This document shows, piece after piece, positions 16,152-64,000 of a stretch of 64,000 nucleotides of DNA. The stretch's first letter is position 1, and each line of letters opens with the position of its first letter. The notes under the pieces are model-generated. The model ran no database searches. It was not told where the DNA came from and worked only from the letters and a program-made list of their open reading frames with translations. This DNA comes from Eledone cirrhosa (taxonomy: Eukaryota): positions 319,052,001 to 319,116,000 of the forward strand of contig OZ024743.1 in NCBI GenBank assembly GCA_964016885.1, read 5' to 3'. Both the position numbers and the translations under genes were made by a program.

Positions 16152-16496
16152 CATATCGAGTGAGTTAGTCGGCCGAGCGTACTGAAAACGATAAATGGAA
16201 TAAATGAAATTTCATTTCTCACTCTTAGTACGGCTGATACTCAAATATAAGTATGTACATATATATATGTGTGCATGTATGTATGTATGTATATACATAC
16301 TACTGTACATCTGTATACATATATGTATGTACGTATACATACTTATATCTGAGTATCAGCCGTACTAAGAGTGAGAAATGAAATTTCACTTTTTCCATTT
16401 ATCCTTTTCGGTACACCCGGCCGACTAACTCACTCGATATGCAAATTAGGCTACTCAGCCGTTGATATGCATAAGGAAAGTATATACTTTCAAACG

Positions 16497-16497
<1 letters not shown>
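16152..16497 (+). mobile_element. Retrozyme-like family A fragment with 5' fold-back
   Basis: 16152-~16260 is an imperfect inverted repeat of ~16335-16441; 16255-16345 matches 28980-29065; 16458-16497 matches 28758-28797, just upstream of an HHR. Confidence 0.7.
16439..16486 (+). promoter_or_regulatory. Octamer (ATGCAAAT) + TATA-like module
   Basis: ATGCAAAT at 16439-16446 and TATATA at 16481; the same arrangement occurs at 29848/29889. Confidence 0.45.
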
Positions 16498-16859
<362 letters not shown>

Positions 16860-19424: not shown

Positions 19425-23724
<4,300 letters not shown>

Positions 23725-23918
23725 ATACCTGGGGAGGGTCATATTTGTGTAATATTGCCAGAATTAATAACAGAACACACTCACTGTTTGGTTGGTATTT
23801 GCTTTTCGCTTCTGTGTCTTTTATATCGGTAATCTAATTTATTCGGTCCTCAATTTTGCCATTGACTGACCAGCGGTCAAAAATAATACAGATACAATAT
23901 AGACACAAACACATACAT

Positions 23919-23971
23919 ATAGTTTATCAAAGTTCTTTCGTTGCACATCTGCAACTCGTCAGTGGTGCTAT
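23919..23971 (-). ncRNA. Type I hammerhead ribozyme in the Penelope 3' UTR
   Basis: atagcacca-CTGACGA-gttgca.gatg.tgcaac-GAA-AGAACT-T-tgataaactat: perfect 6 bp stem II, near-palindromic stem III, CUU; stem I imperfect. Confidence 0.7.
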
Positions 23972-24223
23972 TGTTTCCTCCCGTTACATTGTATTTTCTA
24001 CGCCATCTTTATTTAGTCTGTTTATATATTTATTTATTTGTTTATTTTATTTTGTCTTCTTTGCGCATGCATTTGCGTGTGTGTATAGTGTTTTGTTTGA
24101 TGTGTGTTCGTGATTGGGTGACTGTGTATTGGTTAATGCATTCTATCTTTACTAGTGTGTGTTTATATGTGTTTGTTGTTATTGTGCTTGTGTATATATT
24201 TATTTATTCATCTATTTATTTAT

Positions 24224-27200
24224 TTATACTTCTCTTAGGTCAGTGTTGTTTGTTTGGGTGTTGTTGTTATTCCATTCATTCTTTCTGTTTAGCCTTGGCC
24301 TTCTAAGTTCTATTTCACTGGCCTCTCTGACTTGCCTATCTGCTGGGTCATTTCTATGTTTAGATATCATTCTAATGTCTATGTTGTCTATGTTACCGGC
24401 GTGTTGTTGTTTGGCATGTTCGTATAGTACTGACCAGTTTTTTCGTCCTTTTAGTTCCCCCCAGTGTTGGTCTATCCTTTCACCTATGCTACGAGCTGTC
24501 TCGCCTATGTATGTTGTTGTCATGTTTCTGCAAGTACCCTCTGTACATCTTATGCTATAGACTACGTTTCTAGTTTTACAGTTTATCCGGGGGTTTACCT
24601 TACATATGATACATTTCATATTAGGACAGCGCGTTTTCTTAAAAGGGTAGGTTTTGCTGATCAGGGATTTTATGGTGGTTCCTGGCTTTTCTACCACCTT
24701 AATCTTTAAGTGGGTCTTTCTCAGGGCCTTTCTACACTGGTTAGCTAATTTCCCTCCAGGGGTAGCGTCCACAAACATGACACTCTGGTATCTCTGGTTG
24801 TCGTACCATGAGGGGGCTTTCCCTATCTTATGTCTAGCCCTATCTAAGCTATTCCATGATTTGCTCCTGTATAATGGGCAAATTTCTTTCATGTCCAGTT
24901 CTATGAGGGTCTTATACTTCTCCATGGCTCCTTCGTATACTCTGACTCTGTCTCTTTGGTTGTAGCCAGAGAACTGCATGCGGTTGATGAAGTGTTGGAT
25001 GTGTCTTTCCATTTCTGTTGGGTCGCACATGCGGGACACATTCTTCATCACTCGTACCAAATCTGCGATCAGAATATTAAACTTAGCACTACTGGACATT
25101 GCTGAGTTTTTGAGTATCAGGTATTTGGAGGCCATGCGTTTAGCATAGTGTGAGTGGAGGATTTGGGCTCTCTCGTCTATAGTGTTAATCCAGAGTTCCG
25201 TGTCTAATACAGGTAGTCTATTGTTAGGGTGTTTGGAAGGGCAGTCGATAGTTACAGTTATACTCTGGTGTATGGAATTAGCTATCTGCTGGATGCTTTC
25301 CATTGTGCTACGTTCTAAATCAAACTTGTTAGTGCTCTCTAGTGGGGATGTTCTTATAACTATATAGATATCGTCTACGTAACGAGAGTACATGATGAGG
25401 TCTATGGAGCTCTCATTAAGGAGATCTTTAAGTATCCTTTCCCACCATACCATAAAAAGGTTGGCAACATCACCATTATGCTGATGCCAATGGCTGCTCC
25501 CTCATTTTGGGTGTAGATCTTCTCGTTGAACGTGAATATGTGGACCTTTAGGGTAGTTTTGATACTAGCCCCTATTGCATGTGCGACCATTTTTCTTACC
25601 TGATCATTGTTTTGGGGGTCCGTATAGCTTTGGTCCACCCAATCCACCTTCCCATGGGAGTCTTTTTAGCCATTGAAGTTATGGTGGGGGGGGGGGGGGG
25701 GTCTACCTCTTATGGGTCTACTGGGGAAGAAATGTCTAAGATCATGGCTGTCTAGGTAGTCAGTGTCGTAGGTAAGTCTAAGTAGGAGGCCCAGTTCGTC
25801 TGTGTCGACGTCGCAGAACTCCACCTCACTCTCAATGATCATCTCCACACATTTTTCCACAGCAAAATCAATGTTAATGGATGGGTACAATGATACCACA
25901 TCCATGCTGCCTATTATGCAGTTGGATAGGTTCCTGTTTTTGTTGCACTCACTGATTCTGCTGAGGAGGTCCTCTGTACTATCACATACATCTGGGGACA
26001 TCTTGATTATGGGGCGTATAACCATTGAGAGGAAGTAGGAGATCCTGTAGTTGCTAGCTATATTTGCTCCGCATAAGGGTCTTGTTGGTGGTCCTGTTGT
26101 CGGGTCGTCGACTGTCTTGTGGTCTTTGCGGAGCCCATACAAGGGTGGTATGCCATTGTTAGACGCCTGGAAGTTGTTGGCAGTGCGTCTGCTTGGCTTT
26201 AGGATGTCGGTCCACATCATCATGTGAGCGTTGAGGATTTTCTCTCTCCCATCATGTGTTTGCTGTGCAATTTCGCTCGTGTTGGTGATGTGGGGTTGCA
26301 TAGCCTTGATGTAGTTCGGCATGCTATCTATTGACATCCTACCAGACTTATCCGTGGGTAGACATACTACCTCACCATCCCTTGTGCGCTGCTTGAGGCT
26401 AACCAAGCATTCTACAGGTTTCCTCCCAAGTTGTTGAGCCTCTGGTCTGCTCTGTCTCTTAGTATACCGGTCTACTATTTGTCTAATCTTATTTCTAGCT
26501 ATGGTGAACTGTGCCTCTGTCTCATCATCTATTTGTTGTGGTATGCAAACTCTTTTATCAAAGGGTAACCTCGTAGGATAGATATTGCCCATCTTATATG
26601 TTTTGTCAGCTGGGTTGAAAAATAGTTTCTCTAAGGGGTTGTCATTATATCTATCGTGATAGTTGTGTGTGTTGCTATTATTGTTATTATGGTGGTTGTT
26701 GTTGTTCCTATCATTAGCATTATTATTATTGTTATGATTGCTAGATGTATTGTTGCTGTGATTGTTAGATGTATTGTTGTTATGATTGCTAGGTGTATTG
26801 TTGCTGTGATTGTTAGATGTATTGTTGTTATGATTGCTAGATGTATTGTTGCTGTGATTGTTAGATGTATTGTTGTTATGATTGCTAGATGTATCGTTGC
26901 TGTGATTGTTGTTTACTTCACCGTTATTGTTGTTGTTACTGTTATTTCTACCATTGTGGTTGTTACTTTTATTATGTTTCTTGTTTTTGTTGAGTCTATC
27001 ATTAATGTTGCTACATGTATTATTTCCATTATTACCACTGTGATTGTTGTTGTTGTTGTTCGTATTGTTACCGTTATTACTACTGTGGTCGCTGCTGCTG
27101 TGTCTGTAGTTAATGTTTCTATTATTATTATTATTGTGGTTGTTGTTGTTGTTCTGTCTATCATTAGTATTATTACCATTATTACTATTTCTCACTCTCC

Positions 27201-27858
27201 TGCTATTGTTATTGTTATGACTATTACTATTATAGCTGTTATTTCTATACTCAGAGTTATTGTTTATATTACTACTACCGTTATTATTGTTGTTGTTGTT
27301 GTTTACTTTTGCATTCCAACGTATTTTTGTGAAACACTTTTCCAGCTCCGTTTTGCACTCAATAGGGTTAATCTTTTTGTAGATGGCAAATTTTGGTGGT
27401 AGCTGCAGGATTTGTTGTTCTTGTTCACTGATTAAAGTGTTCCCATAAATATTTACTGTGTGGTCATTGGTAAATTCTTCTGGTAGTTTTACATCAGTCA
27501 TACGGATATTGTTGATGTTATCTGGGTATTTTTGAGAATACTCTATTTTCCTTTCTTGTAGTTTTTTCTTATTCATCCATTCTAATTTCTTATTGAAATG
27601 CCTATTGCATTCGTTTCGGGCGTATTTCGTTTCACGTCGGATGACGCTCATGAAGTCATCCCTTTCGTTTGGTGTGGTGAGATTTTGGACTTCCTTACCG
27701 TTAATGCGTTTCTGTCTGTAAAGTTCGTTGACTTTTGTGTATGTTGTTCTTTTCATATTAACTGTTATTGTGTGTTTTAATCGTTCAGCTTGTGTTTTGT
27801 TCAATAATAAATTATTTACTTGTTTTGATGTTTGTTGTGTATATTTTGGAGGAAACAC
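24224..27858 (-). pseudogene. Penelope polyprotein (RT + GIY-YIG) split by 2-3 frameshifts
   Basis: TDKSGR, LYGLRKDHK, RPLCGAN, SMDVVSLYPSI, GAAIG, RYVDD, MQFSGY, CPNMKCIIC, VVYSIRC..YIGETARS..H..H, LNRKNEW. One break lies at the G-run 25687-25701. Confidence 0.9.
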
Positions 27859-28316
27859 AGTGTTTTAAGAAGCGGATTTGTTCTGTTGTTATTGTAGTTT
27901 TTATATAACAGAAAACAGTGTCTGGCAATATTACACAAATATGACCCTCCCCAAGTATAACAATATTTGTTTCGACACACGATTTCATATCAAAAACCTC
28001 GCAAAACTATATATATATATATATATATGAAAGTTTTCATGAAATAGTTTTTAAGACTATACAGAGCATTTGAAGTTTATCCAAATTGAAGGATGAGTAT
28101 TTTAGACTTTATTTTATCATGAGTTAAGGCTCTATTGATTTTTCCCTGGATTTCACTAAATTCTGTGGATGAATTTATATCCTGATTCTCTTTGAGATGA
28201 GTTTGAATTGTTTTTCCCACATCTTACGTTAACTATTTTTCCCAATTTGACGCTATAGTCACTTATATATTATGAAGTGCTGTTGGCTTTTCGCTGCAGT
28301 GTTTTCTATACCTTTC

Positions 28317-28689: not shown

Positions 28690-29065
28690 TATACTTTCCT
28701 TATGCATATTAACGGCTGAGCAGCCTAATTTGCATATCGAGTGAGTTAGTCGGCCGACCGTTAATATGCATAAGGAAAGTATATACTTTCAAACGTTCAA
28801 TCATCTGACAGGAAGGTATACGATGCTGACGATGGCTAATAAGCTTGAAACTAGTTCATCGTTCCTGTGTCAGTGTTGAACAAAAGGGCGACGATGGTTG
28901 CCGAACACTGTACGGCTTAATTCGGGGTATTTGTTTACAAACAAACCGAACATTATAATAAATGTTCGGTGAACCCATACGCACATATATATGTGTGCAT
29001 GTATGTATATATATACATACTACTGTACGTCTGTATACATATATGTATGTACGTATACATACTTA
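28690..29065 (+). mobile_element. Retrozyme-like family A copy with 5' inverted segment
   Basis: 28690-28757 is the reverse complement of the octamer/TATA module; the plus-strand copy from 28758 runs through an HHR into sequence shared with 16255-16345. Confidence 0.75.
28805..28873 (+). ncRNA. Type I hammerhead ribozyme with extended bulged stem I
   Basis: ctgaca.ggaa.ggtata.cgatg-CTGACGA-t.ggct.aata.agct.t-GAA-ACTAGT-T-catcg.ttcc.tg.tgtcag; GUU triplet, predicted cut after 28856. Confidence 0.85.
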
Positions 29066-29066
29066 C

Positions 29067-29149
<83 letters not shown>

Positions 29150-29302
29150 AAATAAAGTTAAATAAAAAGTCAAATGCTTAACATATACTCAAAATCTATA
29201 TATTATATATATATATATATATATTTTTTATATATCTATAAATATATATATATAATTAAGTTAAAGTGTACATCTATATATGTATACGGAAGTATCAGTA
29301 TG

Positions 29303-29348
<46 letters not shown>

Positions 29349-29488
29349 TAAATACACATATGTATACATATGCACATGTACCGAGCTTTTCACTAGACAC
29401 TTTACAGTGAGTGTCCAGCTAGTCTGTATGTAAACAGACGAACCGGGTTTTAGAGTCATACGAGTTTTCAAGGAAACACATTTCCTCT

Positions 29489-29584
29489 ATTCTCCAGAGA
29501 GCCAGACAGGAATATTGGACTAGTTTCGATGTTATTACATCTCATCAGCAATATATACCTATCTTTCCGGCTTCTCTGGAGAAT
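29489..29584 (-). ncRNA. Type I hammerhead ribozyme (reverse-complement copy of 29913-30008)
   Basis: Same sequence as the plus copy, by eye. Confidence 0.9.
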
Positions 29585-29847
29585 TGTAAAAGCACATATC
29601 GTTATATGCTTTTTCTATGAAAATCAGTAGTGGGCAGACTAATTTGCATAGAACGTGAGTCATTGTACGCACCGGTTCAGCGGAAACGATAAAAACGAAT
29701 AACGAAACGAAATTAAATTTCGTTTCGCTTCTAACTCACTTTTGTATGACTGACGCTTAAACAATTAAGTTAAAGTGTACATCTATATATGTATACGGAA
29801 GTATCAGTATGCATACATATATATATATGTACAATGACTCACGTTCT

Positions 29848-29895
29848 ATGCAAATTAGTCTGCCCACTACTGATTTTCATAGAAAAAGCATATAA
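29848..29895 (+). promoter_or_regulatory. Octamer + TATA-like module
   Basis: ATGCAAAT at 29848-29855 and CATATAA at 29889-29895, upstream of the HHR. Confidence 0.45.
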
Positions 29896-29912
29896 CGATA
29901 TGTGCTTTTACA

Positions 29913-30008
29913 ATTCTCCAGAGAAGCCGGAAAGATAGGTATATATTGCTGATGAGATGTAATAACATCGAAACTAGTCCAATATTCCTGTCTGGCTCTC
30001 TGGAGAAT
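29913..30008 (+). ncRNA. Type I hammerhead ribozyme, canonical core
   Basis: attctccagaga..agatagg.tat.atattg-CTGATGA-gatgt.aata.acatc-GAA-ACTAGT-C-caatat.t.cctgtct..tctctggagaat; GUC triplet, predicted cut after 29979. Confidence 0.92.
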
Positions 30009-30142
30009 AGAGGAAATGTGTTTCCTTGAAAACTCGTATGACTCTAAAACCCGGTTCGTCTGTTTACATACAGACTAGCTGGACACTCACTGTAAAGTGT
30101 CTAGTGAAAAGCTCGGTACATGTGCATATGTATACATATGTG

Positions 30143-30214
<72 letters not shown>

Positions 30215-30435
30215 CATACTGATACTTCCGTATACATATATAGATGTACACTTTAACTTAATTGTTTAAGCGTCAGTCATACAAAAGTGAGTTAGAAGCG
30301 AAACGAAATTTAATTTCGTTTCGTTATTCGTTTTTATATATATATATTTTAACTGATATATATATATATATATATAATATATATAATATATATATATATA
30401 TATTTTAACTTATATATATATATATAATATATATA

Positions 30436-30471: not shown

Positions 30472-30529
<58 letters not shown>

Positions 30530-30534
<5 letters not shown>

Positions 30535-30745
30535 CAAATAGTGAAAACAATGAAATTAAACAAAATACGGGTAATTCATATTAAAACTCATTATTTTACG
30601 ATCGTTTCTGGTGAGTAGTTCTCCGTATGTACATTCTATTAGTGATCTATGTAAAATATATTACCAGAAACGATCCTAAAATAATGAGTTTTACTATGAA
30701 TTACCCGTATTTTGTTTAATTTCATTGTTTTCACTATTTGTATTA
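30530..30745. repeat. 83 bp inverted repeat (2 mismatches) containing an HHR 3' half
   Basis: Arms 30530-30612 and 30663-30745; left arm on minus reads GAA-ACGATCGT-A. Confidence 0.85.
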
Positions 30746-30993
30746 TTTTGACTCTGCTTCCAATGAATTATATCGTTGAAAATCTGTATTTTAAACTTTG
30801 CTTCACGACATATTCTACATATGGATTACATTGAGTTCTTCATAAGGCTTGGACCCTACCATTATTTGGTGGATTTATCTGTATATAATATATATATATA
30901 TATATATATTATATACAGAGGGCTCGATAAGGATAAATATATATCAAATATATAAGAACCGTAGAGCAAATATTTATTAAAATAACAGATTAA

Positions 30994-34398: not shown

Positions 34399-34460
34399 TT
34401 TTATTATATTTATTTCGAAGGTACTGTACTGTTTATTCAGTACGTCCTCGTCAGATAAAA
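34399..34460 (-). ncRNA. Type I hammerhead ribozyme downstream of a decayed Penelope
   Basis: ttttat-CTGACGA-ggac.gtactg.aataaa.cagtac.agtaccttc-GAA-ATAAATAT-A-ataaaa; AUA triplet. Confidence 0.7.
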
Positions 34461-35613: not shown

Positions 35614-37650
35614 TCAATATTTTTTCGAAATTTGTATAATGTTTGAAAAGTTCTTCCCAGACTTATGTTGACAGCTGCTAAATAATTCATTTTTCTTATT
35701 AATTAAATTACCATAATTTGTAATTATCAATAGAGTCTCTAAATTGCAAAGATTGCAAATTGGTGAAATGGATGCATTTCGGTTGGAATCAGAATTTTTT
35801 AACTTACTCCAAGAAATTGAGAATTTGATATTTTTTTCTTTCAAAGACCATATTAATTTCTAGAGTGATGTAGAAAATGTTTTATCCGAATTAGAAAAAG
35901 AATGTTTATGATTGTAAAAAGGAAACTTAACCTTAGATGAAGTGGCACCAATGTAGTTATATGTATTATTATTATTAGTTTTAATGGTATATTTATGCAC
36001 TAGATTCTTTTCAAGGCAGTTAATTTGTAAAGGGCATTCGGATTTCCTTCTACAGTTACAATTCATTTCGATGTTATTTCTATTCGTATTATTACTATTA
36101 TTTAGAGGTGTTCTACTATTATTCGTATTTAAACTATTATTATTGTTATTCCAATTAACTAATTTATTATTATTATTATTGTTATTATCGCTAATTATAT
36201 GTTGGTTCAAATTAAGATTTTTACTATTTATTTTTGCTATGTTTTGAGCAATATTCATAGTTGTTGAATAAGAGAGTTTAACTGCGTGTCTATTGAAGAT
36301 AGAGTAATACTTATGTGATCTAGGGAAACATTTATCCAAGGCTTTAAAAAATAAATGTGCTAAAGGTGTTTTAATAGCTAAAGATGCTGGCGGAGCATAC
36401 CAAATTATAGATCTAGTCCTTATTTTTTTCCTCAATTTATTCCTCGAATTGTTGTTTTTACAGTCAATTCTGTTATTATTATTATTATGAATACTGCGAT
36501 TATAATTAATATTATTTTTTTCTACATACTCAATATTAATTTTATATCCTGCTTTATGTAACGCTTCATTATAATATACAGCTTTACTATTAAATATGAT
36601 CTATTAGCGGATAATCTGGATATTCGTTGTTGGACACTGTTGACTATTGCATTTTTAACACTTTTAGGATGATTAAATTAAAAACTAACATAATTTAAGT
36701 TTTCATTTAGTTTATGGAAGGGGTAATAGAGGCCTGAGTTCAAATTAAGAGTTACATAAAAAAAATTAACTATTTTATTGTTATTTTCTACTTCTAATTT
36801 CAGGTCATAATTTTTAAAGAATTCTATAATTATTTTCTTTACTCTATTTAATTCGCTATTATTATGTCTATCTACAGTAAATGATATGTCGTCTCTATAT
36901 AAACCACCGGTAATCTCAGGCAGTTTTCTATTTATCATATTAAGGATGAAAATTCCCACAAGATCGGTAACTTGCGCCGAATCAGATGAGCCCATAGTAA
37001 TGTCAAAGTTCTTCTGCCTATCAGATCTAGTCAAAAAAATCATTGTTAAAATCAATCAAGGTTCGCCTTGCCGTTAAAATGATATTTATCTCGTCACTAG
37101 ATAGATCCGTGTATTTATATGCATATGAAAGCGCCTTATTTAGTAAGTTAGGAGTTATTGAGGAATAATAACTCGCTATGTCCATTTGAATGAATTTATG
37201 ATTTTTCTTATTTTCGATATTATTGAACCAATCTATGACTTCATTAGTGCCCTTTCATAGGTTAAGCCTTGACCTCAATTTTAACATTGGCAAAATCCTA
37301 TTTATTATGTTTTTACTAATTATTCCAAGATCTGATTTCGAAGGTGCAATAATAGACTTATTGCAGGTAAGTCCTCTTCAAAATTTCTTTTATGGTCTTT
37401 AAAATTTATCCGCGGTTGCCTTGGTATGAAAGGTTCGGTCTTCCGTTCTAATCAAAGATTGGTGATAATTTCAAATGCATCATTATTAATGTCCAATAAA
37501 TCCTCATTCGGAGACTTTCTGTAATTTTGTCTCAATTCTTTTTAAATTAAGTCATTAAATTTTGTTTTTTCAATCCCATATAGGTTGTTGGTTTTGTCTG
37601 ATTTCACTAATATTTTATTTACTTTTTTATGTCATTAATTTTTTCCCTTA
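35614..37650 (-). pseudogene. Decayed Penelope RT + GIY-YIG (YRDD type)
   Basis: KSDKTNNLY, FKDHK, ITMGSSDSAQVTDLVG, GGLYRDD, IIWYAPP, CNCRRKSECPL, YNYIGAT..NHKHSF, CNLCNLE. Confidence 0.85.
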
Positions 37651-54002: not shown

Positions 54003-55977
54003 ATGGCTAATTCACCTCTGCACCAAGCAGCTGAAAGCCTTTCTCACAAATTAACACCTCACACCGACACCACCATTGTAAATGTTACTACGTTTGCCAA
54101 CACTACAAAAAATATAAGCAGTAGCAATATTTTATATTTGTCTAAGGCAGACATTCATTGCCCGCCATTACCAATGACTTCAGGTGTTAAAGCCTCCACC
54201 ACCACCACCACCACCACCACCGCGACAACAGAAACAAAAGAAGAAAAAAATAAATTAACTCCTGATGTCGAAATGAAATCAAGCAAAATGGACTCTTCCA
54301 CACCAAAGACGACTGACGTCACCACCACCACAACTGAAACTAAAATTAATATTAAAACAAATAACGATAGCAACAACAACAACAATGACATTATAAAAAC
54401 ATCCCTCAGTTTTGCCAGAGTAGCAAAACAGTTCGAAGCATTTACGGTAACTCAGGAGGATTTAGAAAATGCCAAACAAATGGTAAAGAAAGATGGGTAC
54501 AGGGTCAGCCTCACCCCCCACCTAATAAAATGGAGCATCGGCGCCTATGCACCGTGTCGTATCGAACAATAAATGTAAAATCGCGCCGAGTGGAACGGGC
54601 ATCCGAGTCCCAAATCCAAAAAGCTTTGGGACATGTGTGGGCAAGAAAAACCCACATCAGACGTGGGCAGAAGTATGGAACCGTGGACGTGTTCTTTGAA
54701 ACACCAGAGGAGGCTAGAGAACACTCCATGGCCCCATTAAGAAGTGACGACTTCACACTCGTCCCAAGCTATTGTGGCCAGAGACTCGTAAAGATCAGGG
54801 TGACCCACGTTCCACCGGCCATCGAAATTCCCTGGCTAATAGCGGCCGTCCTCGCCGGCATCGAAGCCAACACAAAAATAATAGCAATAGCAAAAGAAAA
54901 GCAGGAGAACTGGTCCGGATCTGGGATGGAGCTCCTGATCCAAGCGGACCAAAAAAGCATTGAGGAGATCCCAGAGGTAATAGACCTCACTGACGGCAGC
55001 CACCTCACGGTAATTGTCGAGGGCAGAAGACCTAGGTGTGTCGTTTGTAGTGAAGGAACCCACCTAAGGGCTTTCTGCCCTCAGGCTAAAAGGTTGAGGC
55101 CACCTCTCCTACCCACCCCAGTGACACAACCATCAACACCACCAGTAGCAGAGATGGCAGCAACAACTGTAGCAGCAACAACAGAAGCAACTATAACAGC
55201 AACAACCCCAGCAACAGTAGCAAAACCAACACCACCACCACCACCAGAAAAACCAACACCACCACCAACCAACACTTCAGAACTAGCACCAGCGCCTACA
55301 CCATCCACCACGCCACAAGCAAAACTAACGCCTGTGGAGGATTTTCCACTCCCCGGCCTATCACAACTGGAGACAGATTGTGACGACGAGGAGTGGGAAA
55401 CGATATCCGGGGAAAAAAAAAAAACCAAAAAAGAAAAAATTCTCTTCCTTCCCCCTCCAAAAACAAAATACAGAGGGAAACAAATAAATTAAGAAACAAA
55501 AAAGTTAGGACAGATATGCCACCATTCACACCAGCATCACCAACCCCATCAACCCAAACACCAACACCATCACCATCATTAACCCCAACACCACCATCAC
55601 CTACACCACAAAAGTCACCAAAATGCGAAACAGAAACAAACCCACAACAAACGCAAACAAAACAAAACAACCAAAACGATACACACTACACAGCATTAAA
55701 TTTGAACAACAAGCAATTATTACACTACATCCAACACTATACCAGCATCACAGAAAAAGACTACACAACAACCCCAAAATTCACACCACCTCCACACATA
55801 CAAATCACTCGCATCACACAGAAAACGTACATGACACTAAAAAAAAAATTCCCCAAAGACATCGGAGACTTCCGACAAGCACTCTCCAGGAGGATTTATA
55901 AGGACATCCTTCCTGAGGAGGCCACAAGCAGTGAAAAGGATGGAAAAACCGTCCTTCCCCTACGAGAAGTAAGGTAA
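54003..55977 (+). pseudogene. LINE ORF1 (gag-like, CCHC zinc knuckle, Pro/Thr-rich), frameshifted
   Basis: CVVCSEGTHLRAFC knuckle; pieces 53994-54572, 54530-55492 and 55393-55977; one break at the A-run ~55413-55424. Confidence 0.75.
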
Positions 55978-56011
55978 GTGGTCTTTCCCATCTTTTCCAC
56001 TCCTTTTCAAC

Positions 56012-59000
56012 ATGACCTCACTCAGAATAGGCAGCATAAATGCGCGTGGCTTGGGGTCGTCATGGAAGCAGGGCCACCTGCTCAACGACCTCAGGTCACT
56101 AAACATAGATGTAGTGTCCATCAGCGAGACCAGAATCTCCGAAGCACAGGCTTTCGCACCGATCTTCGGCGGCTACGATGTGTACGCATCTCCCAGCCGT
56201 CCGGGATCGGGGGGAGGAGTTGCTGTGCTTTTTCGGAGAGGTTTGGATCTTGCCATACGGGTCATCTTCCTGGACCCAGAAGGTAAGTTGGTGGTGCTGG
56301 ACGTGACCAGCGGAGACGGGCAAGCTTTCAGGTTCGTGGCCGTCTATGCCCCAACAGGAGCAGGGCGGCCTGATTTCTTCCGGCGTCTGGAGACCTTTCT
56401 TGGAACGTCCCGCTCTTTAGTGTTAGTGGGCGACTGGAACGGGATCTTAGATGCACGCTGGGATTGTGTGGGATTAGTGGATAGGGAAGGAGGGTGCAAG
56501 AGTCTCACCAGCCTGCTCAGACGTTTTGAACTGTCTGACAGGTACCGAATGGATTTCCCGAATGTACCAATGTGGACATGGACAAATCGCATAGGGTCAT
56601 CCAGATCATATCTAGATAGAGTATTTTGTAGGGAAATAGATAGGTCTAGCATAGGCTGTCCACAATTCAAGATAGTCAGCTACACGGACCACAAATTCGT
56701 GATCTGTGTGCTTGACTTAGATAGGCTTTATAGACGAGGACCCGGCTACTGGAAGCTAAACGCGTCCTTACCAGCGCGCAAGGCCTACAGAGACCGGATT
56801 AGCGAACTAGTTAAGCGGGCGTTGACGGGGGCCATCGTCAACAACAAGTGGTGGTTTGCTCTGAAAAGAGCAATTAGAATAGAGTCCATTAGGTTTAGTA
56901 AGACTTTAGCAATAGAGAAAAATAGAGCAGAGGGAGAATTAGTTAGAAAATTAGATGAGGCGCTTAGCAAAGGCATCGCGATCGACGTACTTGCGGCGAA
57001 ATTGGCCCTTGACCAATTCTTCAATGCAAAGCACGAAGGCTGCGTTGTCAGAGCTAGGGTGCGTGCTCTCAGACACGGGGGGACGAAAGCCGTTCAATGG
57101 GCCCGACTTGCGGAGGCGCGTCGTGGCAACAAAGCCACGATCCGGTCTTTGGTGGACCACGACGGGCGCATGCTACTCGATCCCGGGCAAATGTGTGAAG
57201 CTTTTCAGCGACACTTCGCTCAACTGTTCGGGGGCAGTGGCGGGCCGGATCGAGGGATGGACTTTAGTGTCTACCTCGACGGACTGCCGCGGCTTTCGGC
57301 CACTAAGGCGGAGTGTTGCGAAAAGCCGATAACAACCGCTGAAGTACGGGATGCAATGACTAGTTGAACAAGGTGTAAATCGCCTGGTTTGGATGGTCTA
57401 CCCTATGAACTTTACGTACAAATGCCAGACTTGTTCGGAGGCCTCTTGGCGGACGTCTACTGCAACTGGCAACAGAACGGGAGAATTCCCAGCTCTGTGA
57501 GCCGAGGAGCGGTGGCGCTGCTGAGAAAGGATCCGAACAAGGGGGATAACATAGATAATTTCAGGCCCATAACTCTGCTAAACACAGAGTTCAAGATTTT
57601 GGCCAAGGTGCTAGCAAAGAGGTTGGCGCTTGTCGTTGGTGGTCTGGTGGGAGAGGCACAGACATGCGCCAATCCCGACAGATCCATCCACGACAACCTT
57701 CACCTCATGCGATACATCGTAGAGAGGGTAGCTAGGGAACCTGGCACGGGTGGGTCTTTGATCAATTTAGATCAGTCGAAAGCCTTCGATAGGGTCGACC
57801 ATCGTTACCTAGCGGCAGTCCTGAGGGCGGCTGGCTTTGGGCCCGTCTTCAGAGGCTGGATCGCTGCCATTCACAGCGACATCTGCTCTGTAGTGAGAGT
57901 GAACGGTCACCTTTCGGAACCGTTCAACATCATGCGCTCGGTCCGCCAAGGATGTCCCCTCTCGTCCCTCTTGTACGTATTGACTCTCGAGCCATTACTG
58001 CACAAACTGGAGACGTTGAGGGGGGTCCCGCGCGAACTAGGATGCGGAAGATCCGTGTCAGCATATGCCGACGATGTCACCGTAGTGGTGTCGAACGCCA
58101 AACACATCGAGGCGAGCGGCACTACACTAAGAGAATACGAAGCGGTGACAGGAGCAATGATCAACCATGAAAAGTCAGTGGGCCTGCAGCTCGGCACCTG
58201 GAGAGGCAGGTCCATGCCGTCCGACAGCGTCGTCGGGCGCTGGACGGACGGACCGGTTAAATTGCTAGGGGTCTGGTTCGGTCCAGACCTCCAGACGGAC
58301 AAAAACTGGGACGAGGTGACGATCAGGGTGGTTTCTCTCACCCAGAAATGGGCGGAGAGGAAGCTATCCCTGAAAGGTCGAGCGGAAGTGGCGAATGCGT
58401 ACATCGCATCCGTCATCTACTACCGCCTGACCGTCGTACCTTATCCTAAGCCCCGCCTGACTGCGCTGGAGAGTTTGCTCTTTCGCTTTTTGTGGAAGGG
58501 ACGCGCTCCGATGGTCAGGCGGTCCATATGCTGTCAACACCCGCTACGTGGAGGGCTGGGCATGCCGTGACTGATGATGTGCAGACACGCGCTCAGGCTA
58601 CAACATCTCCACCTCTTCCTCGACGGTGATCAGGTGTGGTCGCCGTTTGCTAGACACGTTTTTCCCCAGCTCGTCTCCTTGACGGAGCTGCAGTCCTGGG
58701 TGGAGCGAAGACCGAGAGGGAGCGCTTGGAGACTGGAATGTCTTCAGGCGCTCACAGCCCTCGACCAATCGGGCAATGTGATCGGTGGAAACTCCACCTT
58801 GGCGTTCTATAGGGGATTAGTGGAGGGGAAGAGCGACGACGTACTTGGAGAAACTCTAGGCGTCGACGAAAATCAACTAGCCAATCTCTTCGGAAAAACT
58901 TTCGGGCTGGGGCCTATGGACAACTTCCAGAAATCCCTGGCCTGGCAGTGCTACCGGGGAGCTTTGCCAGTTCGGGATAAACTCTACAGGCATAGAGGTG

Positions 59001-59431
59001 CCGTCAGCGGGGCATGTCCGAGATGCGCGCAGGGCGACGAAACCGTCCTGCACGCACTCGTCCAGTGTCCGAGCATGGCTGACTTCTGGGTTTATGTCGA
59101 ACACCTGCTGTCACGTGTAGGACGGATCCAGCTATCAGCTGAGTCCATCGTGAGGATTGCACTGCCCCCTTCCTTTAGCCGGGAAGGGCAGGCAGTTTTT
59201 ATCTGTCTGGTGGCCATGGCGAAAGAGATAGTATGGTGGACACGTTTGAAAGGGCTGAAGACGAGCACTTACCTCTTCGGTGATGCCCTGATTAACTTTT
59301 TCAAATTTCATTTGAAAAGGAAAATCAGGGTAGAGAGGGAAATGCTCTATTCCCAGCATTTTGTTGAAAGATGGGTGAGAGAAGCAAGTATGGCCCGAAT
59401 GAATGGGCCTTCTCTGAGTATGTGTCTGTAA
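56012..59431 (+). pseudogene. LINE ORF2 (APE, RT, C-terminal CCHC) in one frame with two internal TGA stops
   Basis: SINARGL, GDWN, TDH, WKLN, KSPGLDG, FRPITLLN, LDQSKAFDRVDH, VRQGCPLS, YADD, CPRC..H..C; TGA at 57365-57367 and 58568-58570. Confidence 0.92.
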
Positions 59432-59645
59432 ATTAAGGGTGGAAAACTGGGAGAGGGCACTTGCCCTGGTGATCAGGGTCACTGTGGTCTTTTAATGGGC
59501 TTTCTCCACAAATGTCCCTCGGAAGTCTCCCCCCTATTGGGGAATTTTTCTTTGTTATTTTATTTCATCCTCTGTTTTTACACGCAGAAATGCCCATTTG
59601 TACCGTCCTGTATTGTCCTGTACTGTCCTTAATGTCTACTTTATG

Positions 59646-62600
59646 TGGGAAACGGTATCTGGAAAAAAGAAAAGAAGAAACCAAAAAAGAAAAAATTCTC
59701 TTCCCTCCCCCTCCAAAAACAAAATCCAGAGGGAAACAAATAAACTATCAAACAAAAAAGTTAGGACAGATATGCCACCATCCACACCAGCATCACCAAC
59801 CTCATCACCACAAAAACCAACACCATCACCATCATTAACACAAACACCACCATCACCAACACCACAAAAGTCACCAAAAGTCACCAAAAAGCGAAACAGA
59901 AACAAACCCACAACAAACGCAAACAAAACAAAACAACCAAAACGATACACACTACACAGTATTAAATTTGAACAACAACCAATTATTACACTACATACAA
60001 CACAACACCAGCATCACAGAAAAAGACTACACAACAACCCAAAAGTTCACACCACCTCCACACATACAAATCACTCGCATCACACAGAAAACGTACACGA
60101 CACTAAAAAAAAAATTCCCCAAAGACATCGGAGACTTCCGACAAACACTCTCCAGGAGGATTTATAAGGACATCCTTCCGGAGGAGGCCACAAGCAGTGA
60201 AAAGGATGGACAAACCATCCTTCCTTTACGAGAAGTAAGGAAAGTGGTCTTCCCCATCTTTTCCACTCCATTTCAACATGACCTCACTCAGAATAGGCAG
60301 CATAAATGCACGTGGCTTGGGGTCGTCATGGAAGCAGGGCCACCTGCTCAACGACCTCAGGTCACTAAACATAGATGTAGTGGCCATCAGCGAGACCAGA
60401 ATCTCCGAAGCACGGGCCTTCGCACCGATCTTCGGCGGCTACGATGTGTACGCATCTCCCAGCCGTCCGGGATCGGGCGGGAGGAGTTGCTGTGCTTTTT
60501 CGGAGAGGTTTGGATCTCGCCATACGGGCCATCTTCCTGGACCCAGAAGGTAAGTTGGTAGTGCTGGACGTGACCAGAGGAGACGGGCAACCTTTCAGGC
60601 TAGTGGCCGTCTATGCCCCGACAGGAGCAGGGCGGCCTGATTTCTTCCGGCGTCTGGAGACTATTCTTGGAACGTCCCGCTCTTTAGTGTTAGTGGGCGA
60701 CTGGAAAGGGATCTTAGATGCACGCTGGAACTGTGTGGGATCAGCGGATAGGGAGGAGGGTGCAAGAGCCTCACCAACCTGCTCAGGCGTTTTGAACTGT
60801 CTGACAAGTACCGATTGGATTTCCTGAATGTACCAATGTGGACTTGGACAAATCGCATAGGGTCATCCAGATCATATCTAGATAGTGTATTTTGTAGGGA
60901 AATAGATAGGTCTAGCATAGGCTGTCCACAATTCAAGAGAGTCAGCTACACGGACCACAAACTTGTGATCTGTGTGCTTGAATTAGATAGGCTTCATAGA
61001 CGAGGACCCGGCTACTGGAAGCTAAACGCGTCCTTACCAGCGCGCAAGGCCTACAGAGACCGGATTAGCGAACTAGTTAAGCGGGCGTTGACGGCGGCCA
61101 TCGTCAACAACAAGTGGTGGTTTGCTCTGAAAATAACAATTAGAATAGAGTTCATTAGGTTTAGTAAGGCTTTAGCAATAGAGAAAAATAGAGCGGAGGG
61201 AGAATTAGTTAGAAAATTAGACGAGGCGCTTAGCAAAGGCATCGCGACCGACGTACTTGCGGCGAAATTGGCCCTTGACCAATTCTTCAATGCAAAGCAC
61301 GAAGGCTGCGTTGTCAGAGCTAGGGTGCGTGCTCTCAGACACGGGGGGACGAAAGCCGTTCAATGGGCCCGAGTGGCGGAGGCGCGTCGTGGCAACAAAG
61401 TCACGATCCGGTCTTTGGTGGGCCATGACGGGCGCATGCTACTCGATCTCGGGCAAATGTGTGAAGCTTTTCGGCGACACTTCGCACAGCTGTTCGGGGG
61501 CAGCGGCGGGCCGGATCGAGGGATGAACTTTAGTGTCTACCTCAACGGACTGCCGCGGCTCTCGGCCACTGAGGCGGAGTGTTGCGAAAAGCCGATAACA
61601 GCCGCTGAAGTACGGGAGGCAATGACTGGCTGCACAAGGGGTAAATCGCCTGGTTTGGATGGTCTGCTCTATGAACTTTACGTACAGATGCCAGGCTTGT
61701 CGGGAGGCCTCTTGGCGAACGTCTACTGCAACTGGCAATAGAACGGGAGAATTCCCAGCTCTGTGAGCCGAGGAGCTGTGGAGCTGCTGAGAAAGGATCC
61801 GAAGAGATTGGCTAGTAGATTTTTGTCGACGCCTAGAGTTTCGTCGTCGCTCTTCCCCTCCACTAATCCTTTATAGAACGGCGAGGTGCAGTTTCCACCG
61901 ATCACAATAACATAGATAATTTCAGGCCCATAACTCTGCTAAACACAGAGTTTAAGATTTTGGCCAAGGTGCTAGCAAAGAGGTTGGCGCTTGTCGTTGG
62001 TGGCCTGGTGGGAGAGGCGCAGACGTGCGCCATTCCCGACAGATCCATCCACGACAACCTCCACCTCATGCGATACATCGTAGAGAGGGTATCTAGGGAA
62101 CCTGGCACGGGTGATCCCTTGATCAATTTAGATCAGTCGAAAGCTTTCGATAGGGTCGACCATTGTTACCTAGCGGCAGTCCTGAGGGCGGCTGGCTTTG
62201 GGCCCGTCTCCAGAGGCTGGATCGCTGCCATGCACAGCGACATCTGCTGTGGTGAGAGTGAATTGTCCCCTTTCGGAACAGTTCAACAACATGCGCTCGG
62301 TCCGCCAAGGATGTCCCCTCTCGTCCCTCTTGTACGTATTGACTCTCGAGCCATTACTGCACAAACTGGAGACGTTGAGGGGGGTCCCGCGCGAACTAGG
62401 ATGCGGAAGATCCGTGTCAGCATATGCGGACAATGTCACCATAGTGGTGTCGAACGCCAAACACATCGAGGCGATCGGCACTACACTAAGAGAATACGAA
62501 GCGGTGACAGGAGCAATGATCAACCAGGAAAAGTCAGTGGGCCTGCAGCTCGGCACCTGGAGAGGCAGGTCAATGCCGTCCAACAGCGTCGTCGGGCGCT

Positions 62601-64000
62601 GGACGGACGGACCGGTTAAATTGCTAGGGGTCTGGTTCGGTCCAGACCTCCAGACGGACAAAAACTGGGACGAGGTGACGAGCAGGATGGCTTCTCTCAC
62701 CCAGAAATGGGCGGAGAGGAAGCTATCCCTGAAAGGTCGAGCGGAGGTTGCCAACGCGTAGATCGCGTCCGTCATCTACTACCGCCTGACCGTCGTACCT
62801 TGTCCTAAGCCCCGCCTGACTGCGCTCGAGCGTTTGCTCTTTCGCTTTTTGTGGAAGGGACGCGCTCCGATGGTCAGGCGGTCCATCTGCTGTCAACACC
62901 CGCTACGTGGAGGGCTGGGCATGCTGTGGCTGATGATGCGCAGACACGCGCTCAGGCTACAACATCTCCACCTCTTCCTCGACGGTCGTCAGGTGTGGTC
63001 GCCGTTTGCTAGACACGTCTTTTCCCAACTCGTCTCCTTGACGGAGCTGCAGTCCTGGGTCAAGCGAAGACCGAGAGGGAGCGCTTGGAGACTGGAATGT
63101 CTTCAGCCCTCGACCAATCGGGCAATGTGATCGGTGGAAACTGCACCTCGCCGTTCTATAGAGGATTAGTGGAGGGGAAGAGCGACGACGAAACTCTAGG
63201 CGTCGACAAAAATCTACTAGCCAATCTCTTCGGAAGGACTTTCGGGCCGGGACCTATGGACAACTTCCAGAAATCCCTGGCCTGGCAGTGCTACCGAGGA
63301 GCTTTGCCAGTTCGGGATAAACTCTACAGGCATGGAGGTGCCGTCAGCCGGGCATGTCCGAGATGCGCGCAGGGCGACGAAACCGTCCTGCACGCACTCG
63401 TCCAGTGTCCGAGCATTGCTGACTTGTGGGTTTATGTCGAACACCTGCTGTCACGTGTAGGACGGATCCAGCTATCAGCTGAGTCCATCGTGAGGATTGC
63501 CCCGCCCTCTTCCTTTAGCAAGCAGTTTTTATCTGTCTGGTGGCCATGGCGAAAGAGATAGTATGGTGGACACGTTTGAAAGGGCTGAAGACGAGCACTT
63601 ACCTCTTCGGTGATGCCCTGATTAACTTTTTTAAATTTCATTTGAAAAGGAAAATCAGGGTAGAGAGGGAAGTGCTCTCTTCCCAGCATTTTGTTGAAAG
63701 ATGGGTGAGAGAGGCAAGAATGGCCCGAATGAATGGGCCTACTCTGAGTATGTGTCTTTAAATTAAAGGTGGAAATCCGGGAGAGGGCACTTGCCCTGGT
63801 GGTCAGGGTCACTGTGGCCTTTTAATGGGCTTTCTCCACAAATGTCCTTCGGAAGTCTCCCCCCTATTGGGGAATTTTTCATTGTTATTTTTATTACATC
63901 CTCTGTTTTTTTTACACGCAGAAATGCTCATTTGTACCGTCCTGTATTGTCCTGTACTGTCCTTAATGTCTACTTTATGTAAACCCTTGTGGTTAATAAA
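59646..64000 (+). mobile_element. L1/Tx1-like LINE copy 2, 5'-truncated, multiply frameshifted, with an internal inversion
   Basis: Parallels 55392-59647; ends with AATAAA at the window edge. Confidence 0.92.

Follow-up and report, generated by a model that had tools for sequence, protein, structure and literature searches.

The 64,000-nt stretch of the Eledone cirrhosa genome analyzed here (contig OZ024743.1, positions 319,052,001–319,116,000 of the forward strand; hereafter the window) carries two diverged short repeats, families A and B, each with a hammerhead ribozyme and a putative promoter cassette. Both are inserted, tail to tail, at a common (TA)n-rich target tract (29070–29253). A first-pass annotation of the sequence had read them as self-transcribing, self-cleaving elements related to retrozymes that parasitise neighbouring Penelope elements, and we compared them with the rest of the 3.0 Gb genome and with the host's own small nuclear RNA (snRNA) genes.

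Family B forms two arms placed back to back. The minus-strand arm (29831 to 29254) covers 1.13 units and stops against (TA)n with a fixed short end at 29254; its 69-nt terminal redundancy (29254–29322 and 29763–29831, 98.6% identical) shows that a unit of 509 bp returns to its own start, as the first-pass annotation had it. On the minus strand of this arm lie a 12-mer that contains an octamer (29639–29650) and matches the upstream element of the host U6, U6atac and MRP genes, a TATA-like box (29602–29608) and a type I hammerhead (29496–29566, core 29548–29542). The plus-strand arm (29829–30337) is 5′-truncated and meets (TA)n with its long, tailed end at 30337. It carries the 12-mer at 29847–29858 (octamer at 29848), a weakly matching proximal-element core position at 29864–29868 and a TATA-like box at 29889–29895, whose C-ATATA begins at 29889, 41 nt after the octamer start. 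These are followed by a type I hammerhead (29913–30007, core 29949–29955) that folds with the long extended stem I described earlier. By the host −30 rule the RNA would start at about 29919–29920, and cleavage is predicted after 29979, next to the palindromic stem III (29973–29978). Further along the plus strand come the site at which the short ends of other family B insertions stop (30249–30268) and a tail of about 70 nt, with a hairpin and a T5 run, that reaches the long-end site (30264–30337). A 220-bp palindrome (30529–30746) lies just after family B.

Family A is present as a 5′-truncated plus-strand arm (28758–29069) with a fixed short end against (TA)n, an inverted minus-strand piece (28690–28761) and a second plus-strand fragment with inverted arms (16152–16500). 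The first arm keeps its TATA-like box (28780–28786) and a hammerhead (28819–28863, core 28826–28832, stem III 28850–28855) with a predicted cut after 28856 at a GUU triplet. It has no 12-mer of its own; the 12-mer sits on the minus strand of the inverted piece (28736–28725). In the second fragment the 12-mer (16438–16449, octamer at 16439) and the TATA-like box (16481–16487, TATATAC at 16481) are 42 nt apart from octamer start to box, so that the spacing of 41–42 nt given in the first-pass annotation holds in both families, as do its predicted cut positions. The second fragment is interrupted at 16500 by a 150-nt hairpin with a 52-bp duplication (16493–16647). GC content is 0.29–0.31 in the window bins, low as in retrozymes. 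Each of the window elements has only one hammerhead per strand, while arrays elsewhere hold many, so the window copies would be unable to release a monomer and are likely dead ends.

Repeat units, hammerheads and the wider clan

Searches of the genome returned 1,527 first-look candidates for family B and 2,431 for family A, the best of which were 97–100% identical to the query (40 scored for each). A look through sequencing runs listed no RNA data set with the repeats; three contig sets from one study shared 0.28–0.30 of the sequence words, which gives no evidence. Full units of family A measured 429 bp in two of three cases and 501 bp, with an internal insertion, in the third; the length of about 420 bp given earlier for the pieced-together closed unit needed correction. 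The 509 bp of family B stands at the locus, and elsewhere its full units run to 463–469 bp without expansion of the TA tract and 521–539 bp with it, the tract accounting for the spread. A pattern joining the 12-mer to the hammerhead core matched exactly at 26,277 places in the genome and the reversed pattern at none, so the cassette is not due to chance. With the main A and B distances excluded, 1,517 matches remained, again against 0 in the control, and these added families C, D and E. What had been described as two collinear families with a conserved octamer–TATA–ribozyme cassette is therefore part of a larger clan of at least five.

The units are non-coding (the longest open reading frames (ORFs) starting with Met were 40–68 amino acids (aa) in three dimers), and among 60 loci we saw no arrangement of an internal region between long terminal repeats (LTRs). 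At 429–539 bp their upper size slightly exceeds the 150–450 bp quoted for metazoan non-LTR retrozymes. Family B also forms long arrays, of about 40 kb at G000:C1:95.647–95.687 Mb, where a short inverted arm is retained at one end, and of about 14 kb at C1:5.738–5.752 Mb. By every sequence criterion that we applied, A and B belong with the metazoan non-LTR retrozymes as non-coding repeats with a type I hammerhead, as first proposed.

The Rfam model Hammerhead_HH9 matched both family B arms at 34.9 bits (E 4.9e-05), below its gathering score of 52, and the family A hammerhead was not listed by Rfam; miRNA matches in the same scan were dismissed as TA-repeat noise. The ACTAGT of stem III is shared by the two families (29973 and 28850), as the first-pass annotation stated, and forms a palindromic stem of only 2 bp; the AATA loop II said to be common to them is not fixed, as AACA and AAGA also occur. 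Family A has GUU as its cleavage triplet and opens stem II with a U–U mismatch. Structural parsing for type I hammerheads preceded by a 12-mer yielded 50 that were distinct and well paired. The proposed stem covariation was borne out: pairing was kept in 92.9% of 182 cells, 44 of which had changed on both sides, a result equalled in 0 of 500 shuffles and compared with 22–40% in slid controls. The sequences, 14 in number, were picked by hand from four families whose stem III is 6 nt long, and their relatedness makes the shuffle test look stronger than it is. Five different palindromes serve as stem III across families, and a palindromic stem III is described as the mark of dimer-cleaving hammerheads in Penelope elements and the newt (PMC6765202). 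Three monomers folded as circles gave z scores of −9 to −12 (30 shuffles each), so they are strongly self-paired. These hammerheads are predicted to cleave themselves as dimers.

The putative promoter cassette and host snRNA-type genes

We compared the cassette with host genes for U6, U6atac and RNase MRP, which RNA polymerase III (Pol III) transcribes, and for U1, U2 and U5, transcribed by Pol II. The 12-mer TATG(C/G)(A/T)AAT(T/G)AG was present at −77 to −79, with a TATA box at −30, in 5/5 distinct promoters of Pol III genes (U6 twice as a single gene and once as an array, U6atac and MRP), a set from which we excluded 12 further U6 and 9 of 10 U6atac matches that lack the 12-mer and resemble retrocopies, as well as three U6 upstream types without the element (L067-type, L074 and L075). 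It was found in none of 14 distinct Pol II promoters (p 9e-5), with 0 near-matches in 11,742 control positions. The retrozyme octamer falls inside this 12-mer, which strengthens the earlier reading of it as part of a promoter, and 15 bases are identical between family B (plus arm) and the upstream element of one U6 gene (L062). At one U6atac retrocopy (L105) an inverted sequence resembling family E was seen by eye directly upstream. An octamer in the distal position that it takes in vertebrate snRNA genes was considered and rejected, because in this host it is proximal.

Host Pol II promoters showed a different layout, with a YCART core at −55 to −58 in 14/14 and a TATA-like box 25–27 nt later in 11/14. 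(In these genes, at L081–L083, L111–L129, L167–L171 and L187–L195, the TATA-like boxes lie near −30, and near −88 there is an AATTAAA motif.) The retrozyme cassettes share this spacing: a core-like pentamer stands at +17 from the 12-mer start and 24–27 nt before the TATA-like box. A matrix built on the Pol II core ranked the +17 position 84 (B), 9 (A), 23 (C), 2 (D) and 2 (E) of 400, and the family E core reached 12.8 bits, within the host range of 6–22. A pattern of 12-mer, core and TATA without the ribozyme matched at 104 places against 0 in the control, and the promoters found fell into 27 clusters among 62. Of 48 fetched matches, 24 had a relaxed hammerhead core at the expected distance, as did 19 of 288 windows taken as controls; additional lineages, of greater age, are thus reached through the promoter layout by itself. 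From this evidence we consider it likely that each unit carries an internal snRNA-type promoter that works.

If it does, we lean modestly toward Pol II, with Pol III somewhat less probable, because the core-to-TATA spacing is that of Pol II genes, because a T5 run is present in all 9 full B units and because the position of the proximal element is established as able to set polymerase choice in other animals (PMC1761439). The same element and cycle could instead use a U6-type Pol III promoter in compact form, one that works with a 12-mer-to-TATA distance shorter by 5 nt and allows leakage through T4–T5 runs. The 12-mer, a Pol III hallmark in this host, and the 15 nt shared with a U6 gene are what such a promoter would bring; the RNA would be short and structured, and the hammerhead SINEs (short interspersed elements) of schistosomes use Pol III. 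An older lineage (L208, L216, L238 and L240, with the related L237 and L242) combines the 12-mer and core with a TATA at +39 to +43 and, in addition, TATAAATA at +48, a spacing of the Pol III type; a hammerhead core is retained in L208, and the arrangement is possibly a relic of the ancestral promoter. Yet host spacing is held at 47–49 nt in U6, U6atac and MRP, as opposed to 41–44 nt in families A–E, and the core is of Pol II type at the Pol II distance. Host Pol III genes terminate in T5 or longer, and the sense strand has a T5 plus two or three T4 runs in 9/9 full B units (T4–T6 in 3/3 A units), which would halt Pol III before the unit closes. We regard a Pol III promoter as unlikely, though the strongest of the alternatives. 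The idea that the long insertion end is itself a Pol III terminator was rejected: in family A, 12 of 15 such ends extend beyond the T run by several bases.

A promoter read by Pol II has, in addition to the +48 box of the older lineage, several observations to contend with. The hybrid layout occurs in no sampled host gene, the 12-mer being restricted to Pol III genes and the spacing to Pol II genes, and we identified no host gene that uses it; an Rfam scan of 27 loci gave no snRNA-type family. How well the core matches varies by family: strongly in D and E, modestly in A and poorly in B. The combined p of 4e-5 for the core is post hoc and drawn from related families, hence overstated: we had seen the +17 position before testing it, and common ancestry inflates p values. 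Families C–E were found by requiring the 12-mer. In 28 family A copies the 12-mer, which lay outside the search query, diverged from the majority by 1.5% against 4.2% and 11% upstream, but truncated copies and CpG sites raise the upstream figures. The host distal element, which is common to 10 U1, U2 and U6 promoters near −260, was not found in A or B, where the best scores were 2.6–4.6 bits and those of the host 11.6–25.9. No 3′ box was found in A or B either, a departure from host genes on which the proposed read-through into the next unit nevertheless draws. Finally, the 12-mer has an inverted partner matching 10–11 of 12 bases in 7 of the 27 clusters, among them A, B and C, so RNA structure could maintain it.

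That last point leads to another account, in which the 12-mer and TATA-like box were captured or are vestigial, are kept mainly as an RNA hairpin, and transcription of the units comes from host promoters by read-through, in keeping with the current retrozyme model. The inverted partner mirrors a T/G variant of the 12-mer, the TATA arm also lies within a hairpin in folds, A and B lack a distal element, and metazoan retrozymes seem to be promoterless in the wording of one review (PMC7761336). In the other 20 of 27 clusters, though, the best inverted match covers just 6–9 of 12 bases, much as in host genes (7–8); the distances between 12-mer, core and TATA stay constant even where the intervening letters have been replaced, and three independent host promoter features stand together in host order. 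We consider this account improbable.

Three smaller observations concern the other snRNA-type signals. The host distal element resembles TTACCTCCCTT and lies at −257 to −288 in U1, U2 and U6 genes. In family C and a related lineage (L137, L226 and L252) the hammerhead is followed directly by a motif like it (8.9–12.1 bits), which may be nothing more than the 3′ side of a stem. A TCAG motif after the short end was tried as a 3′ box and rejected (scores −9.0 and −4.1; host 5–19).

Insertion ends and the probable Penelope link

All 32 scored rows of family B arms (30 distinct) ended against a microsatellite at one of two sites, 6–11 or 77–80 nt past the anchor. Two-armed B insertions combined one short with one tailed end in 12 of 13 cases, the remaining one having two short ends. 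For family A, 25 rows stopped at 0–10 nt (at least two of them at false anchors), 15 at 58–67 nt and 1 elsewhere. These sites differ from the ribozyme cut, which lies 210–290 nt upstream, so they fall inside the monomer. An inverted, 5′-truncated arm stands next to the main arm, and arms cross several unit junctions. Penelope-like elements (PLEs) are described as having truncated arms in inverted orientation, a tail on one side and microsatellites as targets (PMC8557442), and on these ends we judge a Penelope-type mobilisation of A and B to be very likely.

The dependence on Penelope elements put forward in the first-pass annotation is thus supported in the structure of the ends. Its choice of partner was not: the Penelope copies in the window have no sequence match to A or B and were rejected. 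A candidate is a young Penelope family elsewhere in the genome, with 3,224 first-look candidates (the top 40 at 99%) and an intact 781-aa ORF in 3 of 14 fetched loci, in which reverse transcriptase (RT) and GIY-YIG domains are recognised by motif. Pfam names none of the Penelope ORFs, whose assignment rests on motifs read by eye. Copies of this family with two ends have one short and one long end in 11/12 cases, and the long end finishes in TTTAT, as in A and B. In one chimera (L257; G000:C3:86.481 Mb), inside a single (TA)n-flanked stretch, an RT fragment and an inverted short end of this family are joined to a family B unit, the only direct Penelope link found, which makes the family a candidate partner. 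Some results speak against the partnership. The chimera is a single case with two short ends, no microhomology was found at its junction, and it could have arisen by deletion. Apart from the TTTAT end, A and B show no homology to the termini of any of the three Penelope families compared. As regards the cycle as a whole, near-identical long arrays may have expanded at the DNA level.

Penelope protein matches occurred in only 5 of 90 loci, with just one (L009) directly joined, so the units are not the ends of a coding element; had they been, the first-pass reading would by its own terms have fallen. The notion that they are detached Penelope terminal repeats moved as linear RNA, with arrays made by DNA recombination and no circular intermediate, draws on autonomous elements that acquire the same ends from linear tandem RNA, on the descent of Xenopus retrozymes from pseudo-LTRs (pLTRs) as given in a preprint (10.64898/2026.07.22.740005) and on arrays of tens of near-identical units, but is very improbable given that A and B match no end of the three Penelope families, that the 12-mer is missing from those families as well, that the insertion ends lie within the monomer in arms spanning unit junctions, and that the monomers are strongly self-paired.

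Penelope elements also occur nearby in other forms. One in the window (23717–28007, minus strand) consists of ORF pieces at 25666–27864, with a long Asn-rich stretch, and 24224–25501, with the RT end and GIY-YIG; it has a hammerhead core at 23962, its short end lies in (TA)n, and a 5′ copy in inverted orientation bears a tail of about 40 nt. A second family is represented by fragments including 35860–37055 (minus strand) and by hammerhead-like cores at 34454, 38027, 39058, 17191 and 52741 (minus strand), none with a 12-mer. At L058/L258 one full family A unit lies about 330 nt after a Penelope GIY-YIG end on the same strand, probably as an insertion into the Penelope 3′ region.

A proposed cycle and its precedents

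Taken as a whole, we find it probable that A and B are tandem retrozymes that are self-transcribed, more likely by Pol II, cleaved as dimers, circularised and inserted into (TA)n by Penelope machinery. Seen in the sequence are the unit structure, the covarying hammerhead, the geometry of 12-mer, core and TATA, and the end structure, and from these the following cycle can be drawn up. The 12-mer, core and TATA-like box would recruit the snRNA machinery, and the RNA would start about 30 nt after the TATA and about 30 nt before the ribozyme core. Because there is no 3′ box, the polymerase would continue into the next tandem unit. Two hammerheads would then pair through the palindromic stem III and excise a monomer that is ligated, a step that we rate as quite likely; circularisation of the monomer is reported for coral, mussel and axolotl retrozymes (PMC7229834). 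The monomer would carry inside itself a promoter that is normally external, and since it spans the whole unit, copies would regain that promoter. With cut (TA)n DNA as primer, Penelope RT would begin at two fixed positions in the RNA and copy round the circle, which would yield inverted arms, a one-sided tail and arrays. More tentatively, and with doubt on our part, we suggest that a chimeric promoter of the whole clan, a Pol III activator set on a core and TATA with Pol II spacing and no 3′ box, drives Pol II, in a parasite of Penelope RT with the young Penelope family as its engine. If so, a promoter carried inside the RNA by circularisation would make a SINE-like parasite that escapes the internal-promoter rule.

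Metazoan non-LTR retrozymes are known from coral, mussel and axolotl (Cervera and de la Pena 2020, PMC7229834). The clan shares with them short tandem repeats that are non-coding and low in GC, a type I hammerhead, copy numbers in the thousands and a self-paired monomer, and for them too Penelope elements are proposed as mobilisers in that paper. It differs in that its insertions directly bear Penelope end marks, unlike retrozymes as described there, and in that its units carry a cassette matched to host snRNA-type genes, whereas metazoan retrozymes are said in PMC7761336 to seem promoterless. Expression and circles are documented for the coral, mussel and axolotl elements (PMC7229834), and are predicted for the clan. 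With Penelope-like elements (Craig 2021, PMC8557442; Li 2026), as far as these accounts describe them, the clan shares tandem or inverted 5′-truncated copies, a one-sided tail, microsatellite targets and hammerheads with a palindromic stem III; unlike them it has no ORF, and its tail is 60–70 nt rather than 30–40. The Li 2026 preprint (10.64898/2026.07.22.740005), in its available part, ties retrozymes to Penelope elements without covering molluscs or promoters.

Precedents for hammerhead repeats with a promoter of their own are newt satellite 2 and the schistosome SINEs. The former is a hammerhead tandem repeat with a short stem III and an internal snRNA-type promoter read by Pol II, according to PMC2220036 and PMC6765202. 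The clan shares with it the hammerhead tandem repeat, the short stem III and, by prediction, an internal snRNA-type promoter that is more likely read by Pol II. Primary accounts of satellite 2 are Coats 1994 and Cremisi 1992; its snRNA-type promoter contains an octamer. Unlike the newt repeat, the clan packs a proximal 12-mer, core and TATA within about 50 nt, and its cassette is kept in at least five diverged families of another phylum, with a 12-mer that is a Pol III hallmark of the host. The internal Pol III promoter of schistosome Sm-alpha SINEs is reportedly of tRNA type; the one predicted for the clan is an upstream-type snRNA promoter. In Sm-alpha each unit has the Pol III promoter followed by the hammerhead, and tandem copies are required to propagate, as stated in PMC6765202; promoter, here predicted, and hammerhead follow each other in each clan unit as well. 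Literature searches returned no account of the clan, of cephalopod retrozymes or of mollusc snRNA promoters, with Repbase, Dfam, subscription papers and some supplements, which may list the family, outside their scope.

Two gaps in the account of retrozymes are addressed by these elements. For transcription, for which no promoter seems present in the words of the 2020 review (PMC7761336), the clan offers a precise candidate promoter matched to host snRNA-type genes, with a predicted start. For the enzyme that moves retrozymes, where Penelope has been proposed from co-occurrence and terminal-repeat homology, it offers fixed priming sites and a candidate partner with a 781-aa ORF. Because the promoter can be mutated, the start is predicted, the priming sites are fixed and the candidate partner is intact, both steps are directly testable.

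The window holds two further elements of note. An uninterrupted 999-aa ORF of a long interspersed element (LINE), with endonuclease and RT domains recognised by Pfam, lies between long TA tracts at 19879–22878 (plus strand). At 55393–63980 are tandem copies, about 94% alike, of one element with broken ORFs, which we take to be an L1/Tx1-like family.

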